Position numbers and translations under genes: made by a program | The notes under the pieces: generated by a model | Seen by the model: only the letters and a program-made list of their open reading frames with translations | What the model was told of the DNA's origin: nothing | Databases searched by the model: none | Source of the DNA: a virus | Lineage: Duplodnaviria; Heunggongvirae; Uroviricota; Caudoviricetes | Direction: 5' to 3' (one strand) | Length of the DNA: 33,734 nt | Virus record (IMG/VR): IMGVR_UViG_2778261657_000006 | Span: 1-33,734 of that record | Shown: positions 1-8,375 of the stretch, in pieces | How the letters are laid out: every line of letters begins with the position of its first letter | How positions within the stretch are numbered: position 1 is the stretch's first letter

Positions 1-75
1 AAAACGAGTATTTTTAGTCATCCTGTTTACCTCTTTCTCAGGAAGTTTAGTCTCCAGGATTCCCGGGGCGGTTCA

Positions 76-1152
76 GTGAGTATGGCTAACGCCTGGCTCA
101 GATTATGGCATGACATGCCAAATGACCCTAAGTGGCGAACAATTGCCAGGGTGTCAGGGCAGCCAATTGCAACAGTGATGGCAGTGTATATCCACCTCCT
201 GGTGAGTGCGTCACGAAATGTCACGCGAGGTCACATTGATGTCACGACAGAAGATTTGGCAAGTGCACTCGACGTGACAGAGGAGGTAATTGATTCAATT
301 TTGCAGACGATGCAGGGGCGGGTACTTGATGGTGATTTAATCACTGGATGGGAAAAACGCCAGGTGCTGAAAGAGGACAACGGCAATATTTCGCAAACCG
401 CAAAATCTCCGGCAGAGCGCAAGAGGGCGCAGCGAGAGAGGGAAAGAAAGCGGGAACAAAATGGCGATTGTCACGGCGAGTCACGAAATGTCACGCACAT
501 GTCACGACGAGTCACGACAGATAAAGATACAGATAAAGATACAGATCAAGAAGATCAAAACACTATGGTCCATGGCGTAAAAAACGCCACGAACCAGGCA
601 GGGGATGCTCAGACCGTCAATCTTGGTCAGCCAGCAGGCACGACACCGGAAGCCGACTCAGCGTATGCGCTGAAAGCCGATTCGGGCGCTGTGCAGCAGG
701 TGATGACCGCAAGGCAGGAGCAATCACACCAACTTCAGCAGCCTGAAGCCGATTCCGCCATTCAGCGGGAAGCCGATCGGGTAGTCCCGGAAAACACCGG
801 GCAGCCTGTGGGACGAGTGGATTATCCTGATGTGTTCGAACAGGTCTGGCGGGAATACCCGTTGCGTGCCGGGGCAAACCCGAAGAAATCCGCTTTCAGT
901 GCCTGGAAAGCCAGATTACGCGAGGGGGTGCCACCAGAGGCCATGCTGGATGGTGTGAGGCGTTACGCAAGATACCTGGCGGCTACCGGGAAAACGGGAA
1001 CGGAATTTGTTCAGCGAGCGACGACGTTTTTGGGACCGGACCGGAATTTTGAGAACCCTTGGTTGCTCCCGGCAAGCGGCACGAACAACCAGCGTTGTGT
1101 GAATCATATTTCTGAACCGGATAACGAAATTCCGCCGGGCTTCAGGGGGTAA
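76..1152 (+). CDS. Putative phage replication initiation protein (O-equivalent; C-terminal region resembles the YdaU/DUF1376-type replication domain)
   Basis: 358-aa ORF. The coding sequence contains two clusters of 10-bp-phased TCACG repeats and an adjacent AT-rich tandem repeat, as in lambda where ori lies inside O. Basic KR-rich linker in the middle and a conserved-looking C-terminal domain (YPDVFEQVWREYP...GPDRNFENPWLLP). Start may be GTG at 76 or ATG at 82. Family assignment from memory, not searched. Confidence 0.55.
   Translation: MSMANAWLRLWHDMPNDPKWRTIARVSGQPIATVMAVYIHLLVSASRNVTRGHIDVTTEDLASALDVTEEVIDSILQTMQGRVLDGDLITGWEKRQVLKEDNGNISQTAKSPAERKRAQRERERKREQNGDCHGESRNVTHMSRRVTTDKDTDKDTDQEDQNTMVHGVKNATNQAGDAQTVNLGQPAGTTPEADSAYALKADSGAVQQVMTARQEQSHQLQQPEADSAIQREADRVVPENTGQPVGRVDYPDVFEQVWREYPLRAGANPKKSAFSAWKARLREGVPPEAMLDGVRRYARYLAATGKTGTEFVQRATTFLGPDRNFENPWLLPASGTNNQRCVNHISEPDNEIPPGFRG
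211..246. repeat. Iteron-like cluster 1: four TCACG/TCACA motifs phased at 10-11 bp (putative origin iterons)
   Basis: Direct reading: tcacgaaatg tcacgcgagg tcacattgat gtcacgacag, with motifs starting at 211, 221, 231 and 242. Confidence 0.5.
471..520. repeat. Iteron-like cluster 2: five TCACG motifs phased at 10-11 bp
   Basis: Direct reading: tcacggcgag tcacgaaatg tcacgcacat gtcacgacga gtcacgacag, with motifs at 471, 481, 491, 502 and 512. Cluster 1 is nearly a copy of part of this cluster. Confidence 0.55.
520..557. repeat. AT-rich tandem repeat (gataaagataca x2, then gatcaagaagatca) flanking iteron cluster 2; candidate DNA-unwinding element
   Basis: Direct reading. Encodes the DKDTDKDTDQEDQ low-complexity stretch inside the replication protein. 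Confidence 0.4.
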
Positions 1153-1192
1153 GTGTTAATTTCTGGTCATGAGGTAATTTTCAGGAGGGCTT

Positions 1193-1468
1193 GTGGCAAA
1201 AGTTTTTACACAAGAAGAGCGGGAAAAAATTAAAGGGCAGGTTGTTAAGCTAGTACGCCAGAGTGGGCGAGAGACGCTACGGCAACTGGAAGCTAAAACA
1301 GGTGCGACAAGATATCTGATGAGCGTTCTTGCCAGAGAGCTGGTTGCGAGCGGTGATGTATACAACTCTGGCTACGGGTTATTCCCGTCTGAACAGGCTC
1401 GTAAGGACTGGCAAAACGCCCGCAAAAAAACTCTCGAGGGCAAAGCTGAAGAAACCATCTGTGGTTGA
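1193..1468 (+). CDS. Hypothetical small protein (91 aa), possibly DNA-binding
   Basis: GTG start preceded by AGGAGG at about 6 nt. Basic, helical-looking sequence. An overlapping ORF in another frame (1329..1616) makes the local gene model ambiguous. Confidence 0.4.
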   Translation: MAKVFTQEEREKIKGQVVKLVRQSGRETLRQLEAKTGATRYLMSVLARELVASGDVYNSGYGLFPSEQARKDWQNARKKTLEGKAEETICG

Positions 1469-1730
1469 TCCGGACCTTATCTGGTCATTACCAGACGGAG
1501 AAATACGTCACTATGACAGGCGTCTAAACATAATCCGTCGCGAGTGCCGGAAGAGCGAAGTTATGCGGCGTGTGTTGAACTTTTATCATACCAGTAATAA
1601 GAAATTGGTTCGGTAAATGAAATTAAAGTGTATTGACTCAGATGTGAGGTAATATGTCTATGCATATAAACACTTTGTATGCATGTTGTGTTATTTTTAG
1701 TATGATAGAGTGTGTCAGATTTCTTATGAT

Positions 1731-1760
1731 TAAAAACAACCCTCAATAGAGGGTTGTTAC
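1731..1760 (-). terminator. Rho-independent terminator (bidirectional hairpin) immediately 3' of the OLD-family gene
   Basis: Perfect inverted repeat aacaaccctc-aata-gagggttgtt (1735-1758) followed by a T-run on the minus strand (plus-strand taaaaa at 1731-1736). Confidence 0.55.
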
Positions 1761-1788
1761 TAAATAATATTTATTACAACATTAAAAA

Positions 1789-3600
1789 TTAAAGGATCCA
1801 GATTTCAGGATTCTTTAGCGTCTCAATTTGGTTTTTATTACTGGCATAAAATGCATGATACATGTCTATCATTTTTTCGTTGGAGCTGATAAAAACAGAT
1901 GGATCTTTGTTTAAAATTCTGCTATATGTATCAAATATTGCTTTGTATTCTGGTGTTAAATTATTAGATAGAACTGATGTTACTGTCTCAACTTTGTTTG
2001 ATGGATTGAAATTTTTAAAAAACAGTCCTTCGAAATGAGGTATTTGAATAAATACCATTGGTTTTTTACTTTTAGAGCATTCGTTCATTATGGATACATT
2101 TGAACCCCATGCTCCATTACCTGAAACGCTTCCTTGCTTTAAGCATTTTGGAATGTCGGAGTCATGTACTGCTATATACTCAACGTTAAATTGATTTAAT
2201 ATTTTAGCAAATGTTTTTATATTCCCTTTTCCTAAACAGTCAATGATATGATAATCAACTCCGACAATATCACATATTTTGTTAATGACGATTTTTTCAG
2301 TTGGGCCTTCAACTAATATTATATTGTCGTAAAAGAAAAACTCATTAACCATTGGGTTGCATAATCTTATCATTTTCATATTATCTTTTTCCTCTTCAGA
2401 AAAAGATAGTTCATCTGTAGATATTGTTTTATTTAGCGATTTGTCTTTTTCTATCCTAATTATAGTCGTGTGCTTCTTGGATAAGTCTATGAATACAGGG
2501 GAGTGTGTTGTAGCCATCACCTGCCAGTTATCATTGTTTGCTGCAAAATCATAAAGCGAGTCCCTCGCACTTCTAATTATAGGAGGGTGAAGAAATGATT
2601 CAGGCTCATCAATCAATAAAATATATTGTTTTTTCTCAACAGAGATAGGCTTACCTTTCGCTTTTTTTATTTTATCTCGTGCATGAGATTCGTGAGTCAA
2701 AATTTGCAAAGCAGACCATAAAACGGAGCGGCGAACACCGTGACCTTGGTTCTCGAGAAGAGAGCTATTTATCCCATCCATTTTCACTGTAAGGTTAGAT
2801 TCTGAAACCATAACATCCGCATCTACGGGATCCTTGGAAAGTATGTTTAATTCCAGTTCTAGCCCAGGAAAAACAGATGATGATGATTTGGAGACCTGCT
2901 GTAGAAGATCATCGATTTTTGATTTGGAATCTTTCATAAGAGTGTCTGTCAACTCTTGTATTTTCTGTATTATATCAGCTTTACTTTCCCCTGTTTTCAG
3001 TAACTCATCTTTTGCATCTTCCTTTAAGAAACTTATGATAATTTTTTTAGTTTCATCCATGGATTTATCTGGGCTTATTCTTATTGGTTGAGGAACTCGA
3101 CTTTGTAGTAGTGTGTCAAGTCCCCCAGAGCCCCCATCAATAAATATGCGTTTGCCAGAGGCATCATCAAGGCCATAGGATTGTTTTTGGGCTGCTTTTT
3201 CTGGATGTGACCAAACCCATTTAACACAATAATAGAGTTTGCTTTCCAATGGGGTATTATTTTTCTCCCAATCTCCCCCATACTTTCTTGCCATATTTCT
3301 TCTGTCAAGAGCATCATCTTTATAAAACCATTTCTCTCCCCCTAATGTACGAATATCATCATCAGTGATATCAGTGAAAATTCCGCACATTTCAATTGGT
3401 ATAGATATATCTGAGTTATAAAAATCATGAGCAGTCAGGCCTTTTGCTGATCCTAAAGATGCAAACTTTTCATACGCATCTAATATTGTTGACTTTCCAG
3501 AGTTATTTGGACCAATTAGCACAACTATATCATCGATATATACTTCTATTTCATCTTTTATCGACTTGTAATTTTTAATATTAAATTGCTGTAGCTTCAT
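1789..3600 (-). CDS. OLD-family (overcoming lysogenization defect-like) ABC-type ATPase fused to a TOPRIM nuclease domain; candidate anti-phage defence / exclusion protein
   Basis: 603-aa ORF. N-terminal Walker A GPNNSGKST (aa 30-38), Walker B/D-loop LLIDEPESFLHP, H-loop ATTHSP. C-terminal TOPRIM signature ILVEGPTEK (conserved Glu, about aa 431) and HDSD (DxD, about aa 480; codons around 2161-2169). Very AT-rich compared with the flanking phage genes. Candidate TATAAT -10 upstream and a hairpin terminator downstream. Confidence 0.8.
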   Translation of the reverse strand: MKLQQFNIKNYKSIKDEIEVYIDDIVVLIGPNNSGKSTILDAYEKFASLGSAKGLTAHDFYNSDISIPIEMCGIFTDITDDDIRTLGGEKWFYKDDALDRRNMARKYGGDWEKNNTPLESKLYYCVKWVWSHPEKAAQKQSYGLDDASGKRIFIDGGSGGLDTLLQSRVPQPIRISPDKSMDETKKIIISFLKEDAKDELLKTGESKADIIQKIQELTDTLMKDSKSKIDDLLQQVSKSSSSVFPGLELELNILSKDPVDADVMVSESNLTVKMDGINSSLLENQGHGVRRSVLWSALQILTHESHARDKIKKAKGKPISVEKKQYILLIDEPESFLHPPIIRSARDSLYDFAANNDNWQVMATTHSPVFIDLSKKHTTIIRIEKDKSLNKTISTDELSFSEEEKDNMKMIRLCNPMVNEFFFYDNIILVEGPTEKIVINKICDIVGVDYHIIDCLGKGNIKTFAKILNQFNVEYIAVHDSDIPKCLKQGSVSGNGAWGSNVSIMNECSKSKKPMVFIQIPHFEGLFFKNFNPSNKVETVTSVLSNNLTPEYKAIFDTYSRILNKDPSVFISSNEKMIDMYHAFYASNKNQIETLKNPEIWIL

Positions 3601-3650
3601 TACATGTATCCTTTTTCTGTTCGGAGTGGCACTTGCTAGTGCAAACTAAC

Positions 3651-3685
3651 ATTATAAAAGAATAAAGTGATAGTCTTTTTATTAA
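3651..3685 (-). promoter_or_regulatory. Candidate sigma70 promoter for the OLD-family gene
   Basis: Perfect TATAAT on the minus strand (plus-strand attata at 3651-3656) about 50 nt upstream of the ATG at 3600. The -35 element is weak and AT-rich. Not validated. Confidence 0.3.
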
Positions 3686-3800
3686 CACTGGGGCGTATCG
3701 TGATACATGTTATGTAAATGTTGCTTATCTCTTTCCTTTTATATGATTTGCTGTTATTTTTAAATGCCGAAGGCTTCCATATGTTTTTATCTCAGTTATC

Positions 3801-3846
3801 ACTATCTTTGATAGTTCGTGTGCATGCGCAGTTTCTTTGAAACTGC
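3801..3846. promoter_or_regulatory. Two adjacent palindromes (actatc-ttt-gatagt at 3801-3815; gcagtttc-ttt-gaaactgc at 3828-3846); candidate operator sites
   Basis: Direct reading of perfect inverted repeats in the AT-rich intergenic region between the divergent OLD-family and hok genes. Confidence 0.3.
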
Positions 3847-4030
3847 AGATATCCGCTCTTTACCCAAACGGACAGACAGATTTGTGTTATGCCAACGCAG
3901 AGCGTCGATGGGGAAATAGTATAATAAATGAAAGTTGTTAGTGTCGGATGGGCGTCGTTAACAGGATTTGAGAAAATGAATTTAATTGTTGTTATTGTTC
4001 TTATGGTTCGCCTTTCTGATTGATTTCATG

Positions 4031-4059
4031 TTGGCGAGGTAACGGTAGTTAAGTAGAAT
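4031..4059 (+). promoter_or_regulatory. Candidate hok promoter (TTGGCG - 17 nt - TAGAAT)
   Basis: Sigma70-like hexamers with 17-nt spacing. The predicted transcript would carry a leader of about 170 nt before the hok ATG, matching the long structured leader typical of hok mRNAs. Confidence 0.3.
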
Positions 4060-4234
4060 GGCTGTGGGTGCTTGAGGCTATCTGCCTCGGGCATGAACAC
4101 CAACGGCAGATAGAGAAAAGCCCCAGTTAACATTACGCGTCCTGCAAGACGCTTAACATTAATCTGAGGCCAATTTCATGCTAGACACATGTAGGTTAGC
4201 CTCTTACGTGCCGGAAGGCAAGGAGAAGCAGGCT

Positions 4235-4390
4235 ATGAAGCAGCAAAAGGCGATGTTAATCGCCCTGATCGTCATCTGTTTAACCGTCATAGTGACGGCA
4301 CTGGTAACGAGGAAAGACCTCTGCGAGGTACGAATCCGAACCGGCCAGACGGAGGTCGCTGTCTTCACAGCTTACGAACCTGAGGAGTAA
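4235..4390 (+). CDS. hokD: Hok/Gef-family membrane toxin (type I toxin), HokD/RelF-like
   Basis: 51-aa product MKQQKAMLIALIVICLTVIVTALVTRKDLCEVRIRTGQTEVAVFTAYEPEE: single N-terminal transmembrane helix plus the conserved Hok motif (TRK.LCE.R...G..EVAAF.AYE). The ORF track extends it in frame to 4178, but the recognisable Hok protein begins at the internal Met. Confidence 0.8.
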   Translation: MKQQKAMLIALIVICLTVIVTALVTRKDLCEVRIRTGQTEVAVFTAYEPEE

Positions 4391-4458
4391 GAGACTAGGC
4401 GGGGGAGAAATCCCTCGCCACCTCTGATGAGTCAGGCATCCTCAATGCACCCGCACTT

Positions 4459-4486
4459 AACCCGTTTCGGCGGGTTTTGTTTTTTC
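4459..4486 (+). terminator. Rho-independent terminator after hok
   Basis: Short GC stem acccg...cgggt followed by tttgttttttcc. Confidence 0.5.
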
Positions 4487-5893: not shown

Positions 5894-6271
5894 ATGACTG
5901 AACGCATAGAATTTGTTTTGCCTTACCCGCCGACGGTGAATACCTACTGGCGACGTCGTGGCAGCACATATTTTGTATCAAAAGCCGGTGAGCGTTATCG
6001 CCGTGATGTGGCGCTTATTGTTCGCCAGCAGCGACTGAAATTAAACCTGTCCGGAAGGCTGGCAATAAAAATTATTGCAGAGCCACCGGATAAGCGCCGC
6101 CGCGACCTGGACAATATCCTGAAGGCACCACTGGATGCGCTGACGCATGCCGGACTACTTATAGACGACGAGCAGTTTGATGAAATCAATATTGTGCGCG
6201 GACTGCCTGTTCCTGGTGGGCGGTTGGGCGTGAAGATTTACGAAATTACAGGTGATAACGATGGTGCGTGA
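5894..6271 (+). CDS. rusA: RusA-family Holliday junction resolvase
   Basis: 125 aa with the RusA hallmarks: [54 protein letters not shown]. Confidence 0.85.
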
Positions 6272-6647
6272 TATTCAGCAGGTTATGGAGCGGTGGGGAG
6301 CATGGGCTGCGAACAATCACGAAGATGTGTCATGGGCGTCAATCGCTGCTGGTTTTAAAGGATTAATCCCGCCGAAAGTGAAATCACGCCCTCAGTGTTC
6401 TGATGATGATGCAATGATAATTTGTGGCTGTATGGCCCGGTTGAACAAGAAAAATCAGGATTTGCACGATTTGTTGGTGGATTATTACGTAGGTGGAATG
6501 ACTTTTATGGGGTTGGCACGAAAGCATGGGTGTTCGGATACCTGTATTGGCAAGCGCCTGCAGAAAGCGGAAGGGGTTATTGATGGCATGTTGATGATGC
6601 TTGATATCCGACTGGAGATGGACAGATACGTAGAACGAATCATGTAG
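6261..6647 (+). CDS. Late-gene antiterminator Q (phage 82 / QuuD-type)
   Basis: Product [23 protein letters not shown]...[23 protein letters not shown]... closely resembles the DLP12 QuuD / phage 82 Q family as recalled. Overlaps the rusA stop. Followed by a promoter-terminator pair. Start could also be 6252. Confidence 0.7.
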
Positions 6648-6920: not shown

Positions 6921-7409
6921 ATGGCTATTCAAATCTCAGTTGAAACTCTTTCCCCGATCACCCATAACCAAATCCCTGTCATTACTACCGAGCTTTTGGC
7001 ACAACTTTATGGCACCGAAACTAATAACATCAAAGTGAACTATACACGCAATGCCGAGCGTTTTGTTTGTGGGAAACACTACTTCAAATTGGAAGGGGCT
7101 GAGTTGCGGGAATTTAAGAACAAGGTTACTCAAAGTAACTTAGTTGCACCGCGTACAAAGCACCTCATCCTCTGGACAGAACGCGGAGCAGCCCGTCACA
7201 CCAAAATGCTGGAAACCGATCAGGCGTGGGAAGTGTTCGAAAAACTGGAAGACTGTTATTTCAGCCAAAAACAACCACCAGCAGCACAAAACACCCCAAC
7301 CCAAAATGATGGATGCGCATTACTGATCCACTTCGATAAACACGGTCAGGTCGACTTCACGGAAAAACTACCCGCCGATGCGATGGTATGCACTCTGGAA
7401 CGGTTTTAA
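6921..7409 (+). CDS. ORF6N-domain / antirepressor-like protein (BRO/KilA-N superfamily-like) in the Q-to-lysis interval
   Basis: 162 aa. N-terminal region (ITHNQIPVITTELLAQLYGTETNNIKVNYTRNAERF..GKHYFKLEG.ELREFK) resembles the ORF6N/antirepressor fold as recalled; not searched. AGGA-type ribosome-binding site (aaaaaggatcatcctATG). Confidence 0.5.
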   Translation: MAIQISVETLSPITHNQIPVITTELLAQLYGTETNNIKVNYTRNAERFVCGKHYFKLEGAELREFKNKVTQSNLVAPRTKHLILWTERGAARHTKMLETDQAWEVFEKLEDCYFSQKQPPAAQNTPTQNDGCALLIHFDKHGQVDFTEKLPADAMVCTLERF

Positions 7410-7485
7410 AAATTTTCCCCGAACGCTTTACGATCGTAAAAAGTTGAATATCCTGTTAAGAGTGGTTACTACGCCAAACAGCTTA

Positions 7486-7509
7486 AACCCGCCACTGAGC
7501 GGGTTTTTT
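7486..7509 (+). terminator. Rho-independent terminator
   Basis: acccgc-cactga-gcgggt stem followed by tttttat. Confidence 0.55.
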
Positions 7510-7631
7510 ATGCCTGAAAAACGGTACAGGACGTTAAACGCGCTGGTGGTTGCGAATACTGGTCTTTCGGCTTGTATTTTTGTAAATCGATATATACTTA
7601 TCTTGTGACCAGTAATGTCAGGGCAATTGAT

Positions 7632-8375
7632 ATGAATGAAGCTTGTTCTGTTGTTTTTGTTCATTCCCCGTTTGTTGTGCTCTTTGAAGGAAAAGAGCTC
7701 TCTCTGGAAAGTGGTAGTGCACTTCTTGTCAGGGGGGGAGCTGGATCGTTATTGCCCTTTTCGGAATGTTTTCGGCGAATAAGTCTCAGTGAATCGACAA
7801 TTATCCGTTACCTGTTGTGTGGAGACGAAAAACAGGATGTAGTTTTAGTCCGGCAAATACCACGATATCTTTGCGTGAGTTTTCCCAAGGCAGAATTGAT
7901 GGGCATCCTGATTGATTATCTTTGTGAGGAAAAGATTCATACGGACAATTTAGCGGAAATGCTTTCCTTTTCGTGTCTGGCGTTTTTCTCATCAGAGAAA
8001 ATGTTTTCGTCGTTTCTGACCGCGTGTATTGGCAATATTAGTGACAGGCTTAGTGCATTGTTTCGTACGGACATTGCAGCAAACTGGACTCTGAGAGATG
8101 TGTCTTCGCGGTTATGTATCAGTGAAAGTTTGTTAAAAAAAAGACTGAAAGAAGAAGGCACCTGTTTCAGTGAGTTGTTGCTTACAGAGAGAATGAGAAT
8201 GGCAGCAATGCTGTTGAATCAATCTCGTTGCGCCATCAACAGAATCGCTGCTCAGTGTGGCTATAATTTTACATCTTATTTTATCAGCGTATTCAGGAGT
8301 TATTTTGGTGTTACACCGGCAGGTTACAGGATGGCTGCATTCAATGAGATGAGTTTAAGTGTTACTCAAGAATAA
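7632..8375 (+). CDS. AraC/XylS-family transcriptional regulator (prophage-encoded cargo)
   Basis: C-terminal AraC-type helix-turn-helix pair (WTLRDVSSRLCISESLLKKRLKEE...INRIAAQCGYNFTSYFISVFRSYFGVTPAGYR). AT-rich compared with phage core genes. Track ORF starts at TTG 7572; the first ATG is at 7632. Confidence 0.75.
   Translation: MNEACSVVFVHSPFVVLFEGKELSLESGSALLVRGGAGSLLPFSECFRRISLSESTIIRYLLCGDEKQDVVLVRQIPRYLCVSFPKAELMGILIDYLCEEKIHTDNLAEMLSFSCLAFFSSEKMFSSFLTACIGNISDRLSALFRTDIAANWTLRDVSSRLCISESLLKKRLKEEGTCFSELLLTERMRMAAMLLNQSRCAINRIAAQCGYNFTSYFISVFRSYFGVTPAGYRMAAFNEMSLSVTQE

Follow-up and report, generated by a model that had tools for sequence, protein, structure and literature searches.

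The stretch of DNA analysed here (the window: 33,734 nucleotides (nt), positions 1 to 33,734 of the IMG/VR virus record IMGVR_UViG_2778261657_000006, from a Caudoviricetes virus) carries at its left end a replication initiator gene, after which come two small open reading frames (ORFs) and an AT-rich island with a gene for an OLD-family nuclease. The region from 1153 to 1788 forms the distal end of a replication module of the lambdoid/Rac type, in the loader-less form that occurs naturally, and modules of this form are a common, working and already catalogued class in Escherichia coli phages. We lean towards an explanation that combines this loader-less module, a frameshifted DUF977 gene and a separate OLD cargo with an initiator whose C-terminal tail, similar in sequence to the end of the host protein DnaT, probably brings the host DnaB-DnaC complex directly. 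The feature is ordinary and its class documented; the new part is a specific, testable motif behind the idea that the host loader is used.

An initiator without a loader

Features of the module, with coordinates and strand:

82..1152, plus strand: replication initiator ('phage replisome organizer'), 356 amino acids (aa) from ATG82; the mechanical ORF runs from GTG76 (76..1152)
210..552, no strand assigned: putative origin within the initiator gene, with GTCACG iterons at 210-248 and 470-518, then A/T-rich repeats at 517-552
1111..1149, plus strand: DnaT-type tail motif, the last 13 residues of the initiator, SEPDNEIPPGFRG (phmmer, NCBIfam, tblastn)
1153..1192, plus strand: 40-nt spacer, with the Shine-Dalgarno sequence AGGAGG for DUF977 at 1183-1188
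1193..1616, plus strand: DUF977/Ren-like gene, frameshifted (+1), with a native product of 140 aa
1424..1430, plus strand: A7 homopolymer, the frameshift site, which is A6 in intact alleles

The initiator matches phrog_3729 ('replication initiation protein') from end to end (E = 2e-255), and ATG82 is its likely start, as PGAP puts the starts of homologs at ATG. It begins with a winged-helix domain, which gives a weak match to Phage_rep_org_N/TIGR01714 (Pfam, NCBIfam). In the AlphaFold2 model, the predicted local distance difference test score (pLDDT) falls below 50 at residues 127-245, a long disordered linker, and reaches about 90 at residues 250-330, within a confident helical C-terminal domain (model residues 246-330). 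This last domain received no Pfam or NCBIfam domain call, and a Foldseek search of the PDB gave no match to DnaT and no other significant one (best E = 2.5). Within the gene, the GTCACG iterons form two clusters with a spacing of 10-11 nt, which is helical spacing, and the second cluster leads into three 12-nt A/T-rich repeats, ACAGATAAAGAT, that encode a DKDT repeat in the linker. The layout parallels that of lambda, where ori lies inside gene O, and we predict an origin-binding initiator that has its iterons and A/T-rich tract in its own gene. The number of the 12-nt repeats varies among near-identical relatives (three in the window, four in the E. coli VG48B2 prophage), and the relatives have initiators of 356, 360 or 376 aa.

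As a separate observation, the initiators collected from IMG/VR (loci L011-L130; proteins P0001-P0120) are mosaics that recombine at the linker/origin. The N-domain of the window initiator is also found with a DnaT-like PF17948 C-domain (the O157 type, with a P-like gene next), and its C-domain is also found with lambda-O-type and other N-domains.

That no helicase-loader gene follows the initiator had been claimed in an earlier sequence-only reading of this DNA, and tblastn together with a Walker-A survey of the whole window bears it out. With lambda P, Rac YdaV, E. coli DnaC, POCJ13 gp17, a phage DnaC-like protein and a DnaB-like protein as queries, no loader or helicase was found in the 33.7-kb window (best tblastn E = 0.19), and the only ORFs of at least 100 aa with a Walker-A motif are those of the OLD nuclease and of terminase gpA (the large subunit). 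Neither a lambda P homolog (PF06992) after the initiator nor a YdaV/DnaC-like AAA+ gene directly 3' of it was matched in the window, there being only the 40-nt spacer before DUF977. Lambda O had no tblastn match in the window either, and the initiator is devoid of a lambda-O-type N-terminal origin-binding domain. No gene for a helicase, loader or primase was thus detected in the module or elsewhere in the window. The sequence-only reading had also considered a loader encoded farther upstream; this finds no backing in the relatives, in which the upstream order is cI, cro, ydaT, with no loader.

The loader-less arrangement is widespread. Of 5,426 complete E. coli genomes, 1,538 contain a contiguous match to at least 80% of window positions 1-1800. 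Initiators with 95.7-98.3% identity to that of the window are also encoded by seven deposited phage genomes. The genomes of Evi (40 kb) and Tritos (46 kb), which are complete, have neither an annotated nor a detected loader or helicase, and none was found in the VG48B2 prophage. In Tritos, which is prophage 3 of E. coli LF82, the initiator is 97.8% identical and the DUF977 gene behind it is intact (140 aa). This phage is induced spontaneously, forms plaques on MG1655 hsdR-, and has been propagated to confluent lysis and imaged (PMC9928086). By extrapolation from Tritos and the identity of the two initiators, the module of the window may be capable of autonomous lytic replication. A survey published in 2025 in Genome Research found that LLS and 34 of 314 enterobacterial lambdoid phages have an O-type initiator alone, without a helicase or a loader, and it described the loading of DnaB in these initiator-only phages as 'not yet understood' (PMC12315714).

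The DnaT-type tail of the initiator

The last 25 or so residues of the initiator (...CVNHISEPDNEIPPGFRG) can be set against the end of E. coli DnaT (...RDVNTVSEPDSQIPPGFRG), and the tail peptide proper is VNHISEPDNEIPPGFRG. It matches the DnaT chains 6aep, 2ru8 and 9zbt_D of the PDB (phmmer) and positions 155-179 of the NCBIfam DnaT model, and residues 154-179 of E. coli DnaT find it in the window by tblastn with E = 5e-6. In the pattern S-x-P-D-x-x-I-P-x-G-F-R-G, 105 DnaT orthologs all have the same D, I, P, G, F, R and G and differ at the x positions; the same pattern is kept in homologs of the initiator down to 45% identity. The three-helix single-stranded DNA (ssDNA)-binding domain PF17948 had no match in the window at E<=1 (Pfam), and the initiator, which shares the tail with DnaT and not this domain, is not filed as a member of the DnaT family. 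Its end also agrees with the ...PDxxIPxGFRG of the Rac/DnaC type. The same terminal motif closes Rac YdaU, POCJ13 gp16 and the O-family protein of the loader-less LLS, whose N-domain is unrelated. Altogether, the tail is found on at least four unrelated N-terminal architectures (the window type, the lambda-O type, YdaU/DUF1376 and a DnaT-CTD-like type). A further carrier, outside the classes of our screen, is LLS, a phage that lacks a loader and has been grown experimentally.

The screen consisted of searching IMG/VR DNA for the pattern D-x-x-I-P-x-G-F-R-G-stop, which gave at least 120 loci, all in frame with a true stop. Among the matches listed, 88 loci could be evaluated: a DnaC-like gene starts at +2 to +6 nt in 47, DUF977 stands at +40 nt with no loader in 29, and 12 have neither. 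A lambda-P-like or DnaB-like gene within 4 kb of the tail gene was seen in none of these 88. When loci were chosen by their loader instead, a tail-bearing gene preceded 78 of 79 YdaV-like loaders; in a diverse set of 79 DnaC-like loaders, whose identity to host DnaC is 48-54%, this was so for about 75, with 28 distinct tail strings. In front of lambda-P-like loaders the count was 0 of 79, all 79 being preceded by lambda-O-type ends (...TDWIYGVDL); the C-terminus of lambda O serves P. Initiators with the N-domain of the window, PF17948 and a P-like gene are without the tail, consistent with DopC/DopE (PMC5509034). The O protein of Stx1_499 shares the C-domain, is accompanied by a DnaC-like ATPase and a DnaB-like helicase of its own, and is also without the tail.

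From this distribution, we infer a place for the tail in the DnaC-type loading pathway, most simply as a peptide that would dock on DnaC or DnaB-DnaC. Binding of the initiator to its own iterons is probably followed by melting of the adjacent A/T-rich repeats, whereupon the last ~13 residues of the protein (S-x-P-D-x-x-I-P-x-G-F-R-G-COOH) would recruit the host DnaB-DnaC. In modules with a DnaC copy of their own (Rac YdaV, POCJ13 gp17, L105), this copy would be the one used by the tail; in modules without one, such as that of the window, host DnaC would serve instead. A tail able to use host DnaC would make a phage loader gene dispensable. The sequence-only reading had offered three possibilities for the absence of the loader, namely truncation, replacement by cargo insertion, and direct recruitment of the host loader by the initiator. 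The last of them is the best supported, although the direct contact itself is presumed.

Going further, we tentatively propose that the tail motif is a portable DnaC or DnaB-DnaC docking peptide shared by DnaT and unrelated initiators, that it provides the missing contact in the PriA-PriB-DnaT handover, and that it explains loader-less replication; on motif conservation and gene neighbourhood, we consider this possible, though short of probable. If true, loader-less lambdoids (the window prophage, Tritos, LLS) replicate with the host loader alone. The association of the tail with DnaC bears on two open questions, i.e., how initiator-only lambdoids load DnaB and in what way DnaB-DnaC is brought in by the preprimosome. 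On the second, a 2026 report in Nature Communications states that the way in which DnaB-DnaC is recruited by the DnaT-containing preprimosome 'remains unknown' (PMC13377028). In the literature searched, the string PPGFRG does not occur, and nothing relevant on YdaU/YdaV was found.

Several points weigh against a role of the tail in docking. The AlphaFold2 pLDDT of the tail is only 49-65. The IMG/VR samples are mostly closely related enterobacterial prophages, and the counts given above are not independent events. Co-occurrence is not independent evidence of contact either, because adjacency of initiator and loader is universal and the dnaT-dnaC operon possibly shares ancestry with these modules. 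The reference set of loaders and helicases is small (six queries), and very divergent loaders could escape it, notably in the 12 loci with neither gene. As for DnaT, its N-terminal domain has been proposed as a possible recruiter of DnaB/DnaC (PMC13377028), and the only effect measured after removal of residues 154-179 is ~2-fold weaker and less cooperative binding of ssDNA (PMC4132743). No partner for these residues is named in the literature consulted on DnaT structure, ssDNA binding and PriA dynamics or in reviews.

There are two other ways of reading the tail. It might dock on PriA and/or PriB, so that mimicry of DnaT builds a restart-type preprimosome at the phage origin, onto which DnaB-DnaC is then loaded. 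The C-terminal tips of SSB bind PriA, and the tail, hydrophobic (I, P, P, F) after an acidic stretch, resembles them. Besides, the C-terminal domain of DnaT docks on PriA by a conserved hydrophobic interface, but the tail residues are not named as part of that interface in the text of the structure paper (PMC13377028). The tail moreover tracks the type of loader (DnaC versus lambda P), which contact with PriA would not predict, and initiators with an origin-binding domain of their own need no recognition of forks by PriA. We regard this possibility as unlikely. Alternatively, the tail might contact DnaB, or only aid ssDNA binding or oligomerisation, with host DnaC acting without direct contact with the initiator. 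DnaT truncated at residue 153 indeed has lower affinity and cooperativity for ssDNA (PMC4132743), and every tail-bearing system ultimately loads host DnaB. However, lambda-P-type modules load host DnaB too and have the tail in none of 79 cases, and an invariant terminal motif of seven residues with variable spacers looks like a peptide for docking rather than a surface for binding DNA. We doubt this explanation as well, and docking on DnaC or DnaB-DnaC is the role that we retain.

How the loader-less form compares with full modules

The sequence-only reading had stated that a loader normally follows the initiator, which is true of the nearest full modules. At the IMG/VR locus L105, the initiator is 95.6% identical in DNA to window positions 76-1150, and the next genes are a DnaC-like one, 6 nt farther on, a ~250-aa DUF1627/YdaW-like one, and DUF977 at +1500. 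The order is the same in the Shigella Stx phage POCJ13 and in Rac of K-12 (ydaU-ydaV-ydaW). Relative to these full modules, the form in the window is without a 1.46-kb cassette of two genes (DnaC-like and DUF1627) at the junction between initiator and DUF977. Only ~15 nt upstream of the DUF977 start can be aligned with the full modules; in the rest of the 40-nt spacer there is at best a resemblance of 7 nt (GTCATGA) to the start of the DnaC-like gene, too weak to tell loss of the cassette from gain. All 29 loader-less IMG/VR loci among the matches listed share this +40-nt junction, which stands behind two kinds of initiator N-domain (the window type and the lambda-O type).

It could still be supposed that the module is a defective remnant, which lost its loader when the OLD island was inserted and no longer replicates autonomously. 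The existence of full modules with a DnaC-like gene between initiator and DUF977 would agree with this, and the insertion sequence (IS) just upstream and the frameshift in DUF977 are decay in other respects. But the boundary of the island, at ~1589, lies downstream of the junction, the identical junction is found with four other cargos and in ~1,500 complete genomes, and plaque-forming Tritos, which has the same module, contradicts it. We consider a remnant very unlikely. The suggestion that the module was truncated or replaced by insertion of cargo fails on the same facts: the island is 3' of the junction, and the order is unchanged with other cargos. Intact related phages show the same loader-less order (Tritos, with no loader in its whole genome), and Tritos forms plaques with it; truncation is not supported.

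What is particular to the window copy is its 5' neighbour:

1..75, minus strand: end of an IS3-family (IS629-like) element; the start of orfA (MTKNTRF...) reads leftward and the terminal inverted repeat ends at 75

The reverse complement of 1-80 is TGAACCGCCCCGGGAATCC...ATGACTAAAAATACTCGTTTT. All relatives diverge from the window at exactly position 76, and in NCTC9966 the same IS end adjoins an IS3-family transposase. Before base 76, the relatives have the native ribosome-binding region AGAAGAGG and, farther upstream, ydaT, cro and cI-type genes. In the window, the IS end abuts the initiator 6 nt before the ATG and replaces the native Shine-Dalgarno region, so that the neighbour is an IS and not the phage early genes, the cro/ydaT early operon being separated from the initiator. 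With an IS3-family element at this distance from its ATG, the initiator of this copy is possibly silent; that is, the prophage copy in the window, cut off from the early promoter, may be unable to express or fire its initiator.

One DUF977/Ren-like gene split by a single base

The ORFs 1193..1468 and 1329..1616, which the sequence-only reading reported as ambiguous overlapping small ORFs, both exist in the ORF list of the window, but they are not alternative genes: they encode contiguous parts of one Pfam profile, split by one A. The two ORFs are one DUF977/Ren-like gene, recently inactivated by A6-to-A7 slippage. The 91-aa product of 1193..1468 consists of 79 native residues and 12 out-of-frame residues, and the native C-half continues in the next frame, between 1431 and the stop at 1614-1616. 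The N-half covers positions 1-82 of PF06163 (DUF977; E = 1.5e-14) and the C-half positions 83-131 (E = 5e-8), so the full profile is matched without there being a single intact frame of ~140 aa in the window. Both halves also match phrog_142 ('Ren-like exclusion protein'), with E = 3e-27 and 1.8e-12, and the C-terminus of lambda Ren matches 1527-1586. The N-terminal region is winged-helix-like (a weak GntR-type match). A role of DUF977 in protection from Rex-type exclusion, the function for which Ren is named, is suggested by homology, and a literature search found no experimental work on DUF977. For annotation, 1193..1616 is best given as a single DUF977 pseudogene rather than as two genes.

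Over 1150-1800, one extra A (A7 versus A6) is the sole difference between the window and E. coli VG48B2, which has, as does strain E300010, a single intact DUF977 protein of 140 aa. An alignment of 8.6 kb to VG48B2 contains 181 substitutions and two indels, namely the extra A and one 12-nt unit of the origin repeat; homopolymer errors are therefore not widespread in the window, given a single 1-nt indel over this length. An assembly collection has 93 index blocks that contain exactly the 91-aa truncated product. In all eight independent contigs examined (NCBI, ENA, Logan), A7 occurs together with the OLD gene; over 4.4 kb, the identity of these contigs to the window is 99.2-100%, and their initiators have 356, 360 or 376 aa. 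Since A7 is found in at least eight independent assemblies, it is a real inherited mutation and not a read error, and a homopolymer sequencing error was rejected on this ground and on that of the single 1-nt indel. With one A removed, all nine A7 alleles are identical to the intact VG48B2 allele, and the event is therefore recent; the data do not address selection. An independent start at GTG1461 was also rejected: this is an internal Val codon of the intact gene, with no Shine-Dalgarno-like motif upstream.

Among complete E. coli genomes, the best-covering 40 of 1,045 matches all differ from the window at the A-run or elsewhere, and at most one record is at least 99% identical to it. The A7 allele was not seen among the best matches in the 5,426 complete RefSeq E. 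coli genomes, and it is common in draft and metagenome assemblies. We also observed that the A7 allele (loci L132-L139, relatives of window 76-4468) occurs only alongside the OLD cargo, and that the OLD-bearing prophages VG48B2, strain 135 and XJ34 retain A6.

One might think of the A7 run as programmed, with full-length DUF977 made by +1/-2 ribosomal frameshifting or transcriptional slippage, besides a short form of 91 aa. Homopolymeric A runs are known slippage sites, and the allele persists without secondary decay in a lineage whose members show up to 28 other differences over 4.4 kb. However, more than 1,000 relatives have the in-frame A6, restoration of the frame in the A7 allele requires a +1 shift, which A-runs do not favour, and the absence of decay is uninformative in a gene region without any other substitution. 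Programmed expression is highly improbable in our opinion, and inactivation of the gene is the conclusion that we keep. That the DUF977/Ren-like protein is itself the missing loader or an adaptor can practically be dismissed: it does follow the initiator in 29 of 29 loader-less loci among the matches listed and has a winged-helix-like N-terminal region (again, the weak GntR-type match), but it coexists with DnaC-like loaders in full modules, is absent from the loader-less LLS, is a homolog of lambda Ren, which is dispensable for replication, and sits at the position of ren in lambda, is frameshifted throughout the lineage of the window, and has no ATPase motif.

The OLD island and other genes of the window

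Features downstream of DUF977:

1789..3600, minus strand: OLD-family ATP-dependent nuclease, 603 aa (AAA_15, E = 8.5e-30; OLD-like_TOPRIM, E = 2.3e-14)
1735..1758, minus strand: 10-bp GC-rich hairpin, with a U-run after it on the minus strand only

The sequence-only reading had placed an OLD island downstream of the small ORFs, and rightly so: the nuclease, with its N-terminal ABC/AAA_15 ATPase and C-terminal OLD-type TOPRIM domain, is a member of the OLD family and lies in an AT-rich island from ~1589 to ~4038 (29-40% GC, versus ~50-60% in the flanks). The start of the island falls in the last codons of DUF977, downstream of the junction between this gene and the initiator, and most relatives cease to match at 1588 and resume near 4039. 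The left recombination boundary being in the last ~9 codons of DUF977, each cargo therefore brings its own DUF977 C-terminus. Instead of the OLD cargo, some relatives have DUF4406/ead genes or DUF5677, Tritos has a 444-aa protein, and Evi has an acetyltransferase and a regulator; whether the cargo of a relative is one of these or OLD, the initiator, the 40-nt spacer and DUF977 are the same. The OLD island is a separate cargo, which replaced other cargo downstream of DUF977. It is unrelated to the absence of the loader, because its boundary is 3' of a junction that is the same with other cargos. The slot between DUF977 and hokD (~1589-4038) appears as a hot spot for cargo.

The hairpin at 1735-1758 is strong (-15.8 and -17.4 kcal/mol, z = -5.3 and -4.4), and this part of the 'bidirectional terminator' of the sequence-only reading stands. 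Its bidirectional nature does not, as the U-run is on the minus strand only, and a consensus terminator scan did not call the hairpin on either strand. It is likely the intrinsic terminator of the OLD gene, because the U-tract is on the minus strand and there is none on the plus strand.

Beyond the island come a Hok/Gef toxin gene of the hokD type at 4178-4390 and, after it, a consensus intrinsic terminator at 4459-4476; in the Tritos lysogen, hokD is by far the top-expressed prophage gene (PMC9928086). At 6921-8375, between the Q antiterminator (6252-6647) and the holin/endolysin genes, there are a gene with an ORF6N domain and an AraC-family helix-turn-helix regulator, which look like moron cargo in the late operon; in VG48B2, the ORF6N gene is a truncated pseudogene. 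The morphogenesis module (11718-33734) looks complete, unlike that of the degraded VG48B2 prophage, and comprises the small and large (gpA-type) terminase subunits and then large ORFs, for which portal, tape-measure, J-type tip and tail-fibre roles are guessed from size and order. The last ORF, perhaps for tail-fibre assembly, extends to the end of the window.

Comparison with known systems

The closest parallels of the window are Tritos, LLS and the 34 of 314 lambdoids with a single origin-binding initiator in a genome devoid of helicase and loader. In comparison with Tritos, the window has a frameshifted DUF977, the OLD cargo and an IS abutting the initiator. With LLS it shares only the terminal IPEGFRG, LLS having a lambda-O-type N-domain and no DUF977. 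Rac, POCJ13 (gp16-gp19) and L105 have the same DnaT-type tail as the window and also close the module with a Ren-like/DUF977 gene, and the C-domain of POCJ13 gp16 is 62% identical to that of the window initiator. Such Rac-type modules contain, at a distance of 6 nt behind the initiator, a paralog of DnaC with ~50% identity to the host protein, and also a DUF1627/YdaW-like gene, whereas the window is without both.

Lambda, with its O-P-ren order, resembles the window in having the origin inside the initiator gene, an initiator C-terminus for recruitment of the helicase, and ren as the last gene, DUF977 and Ren being in the same PHROG. It differs in that the window has neither a P homolog nor an O-type N-domain, and in that lambda O ends in ...TDWIYGVDL, with no DnaT-type tail. 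The O-like initiators of the O157 prophage type have an N-domain 85-86% identical to that of the window over residues 1 to ~150, but, as DopC/DopE do (PMC5509034), they carry a PF17948 domain and no terminal tail, and a lambda-P-like gene comes next. The O157 type shares the N-domain and has another C-domain, which shows domain shuffling at the linker/origin. In the host, finally, DnaT has the same invariant end and is encoded directly upstream of DnaC in the dnaT-dnaC operon. Unlike DnaT, the window initiator has no DnaT N-domain and no detectable PF17948, and it is specific for an origin rather than dependent on PriA.

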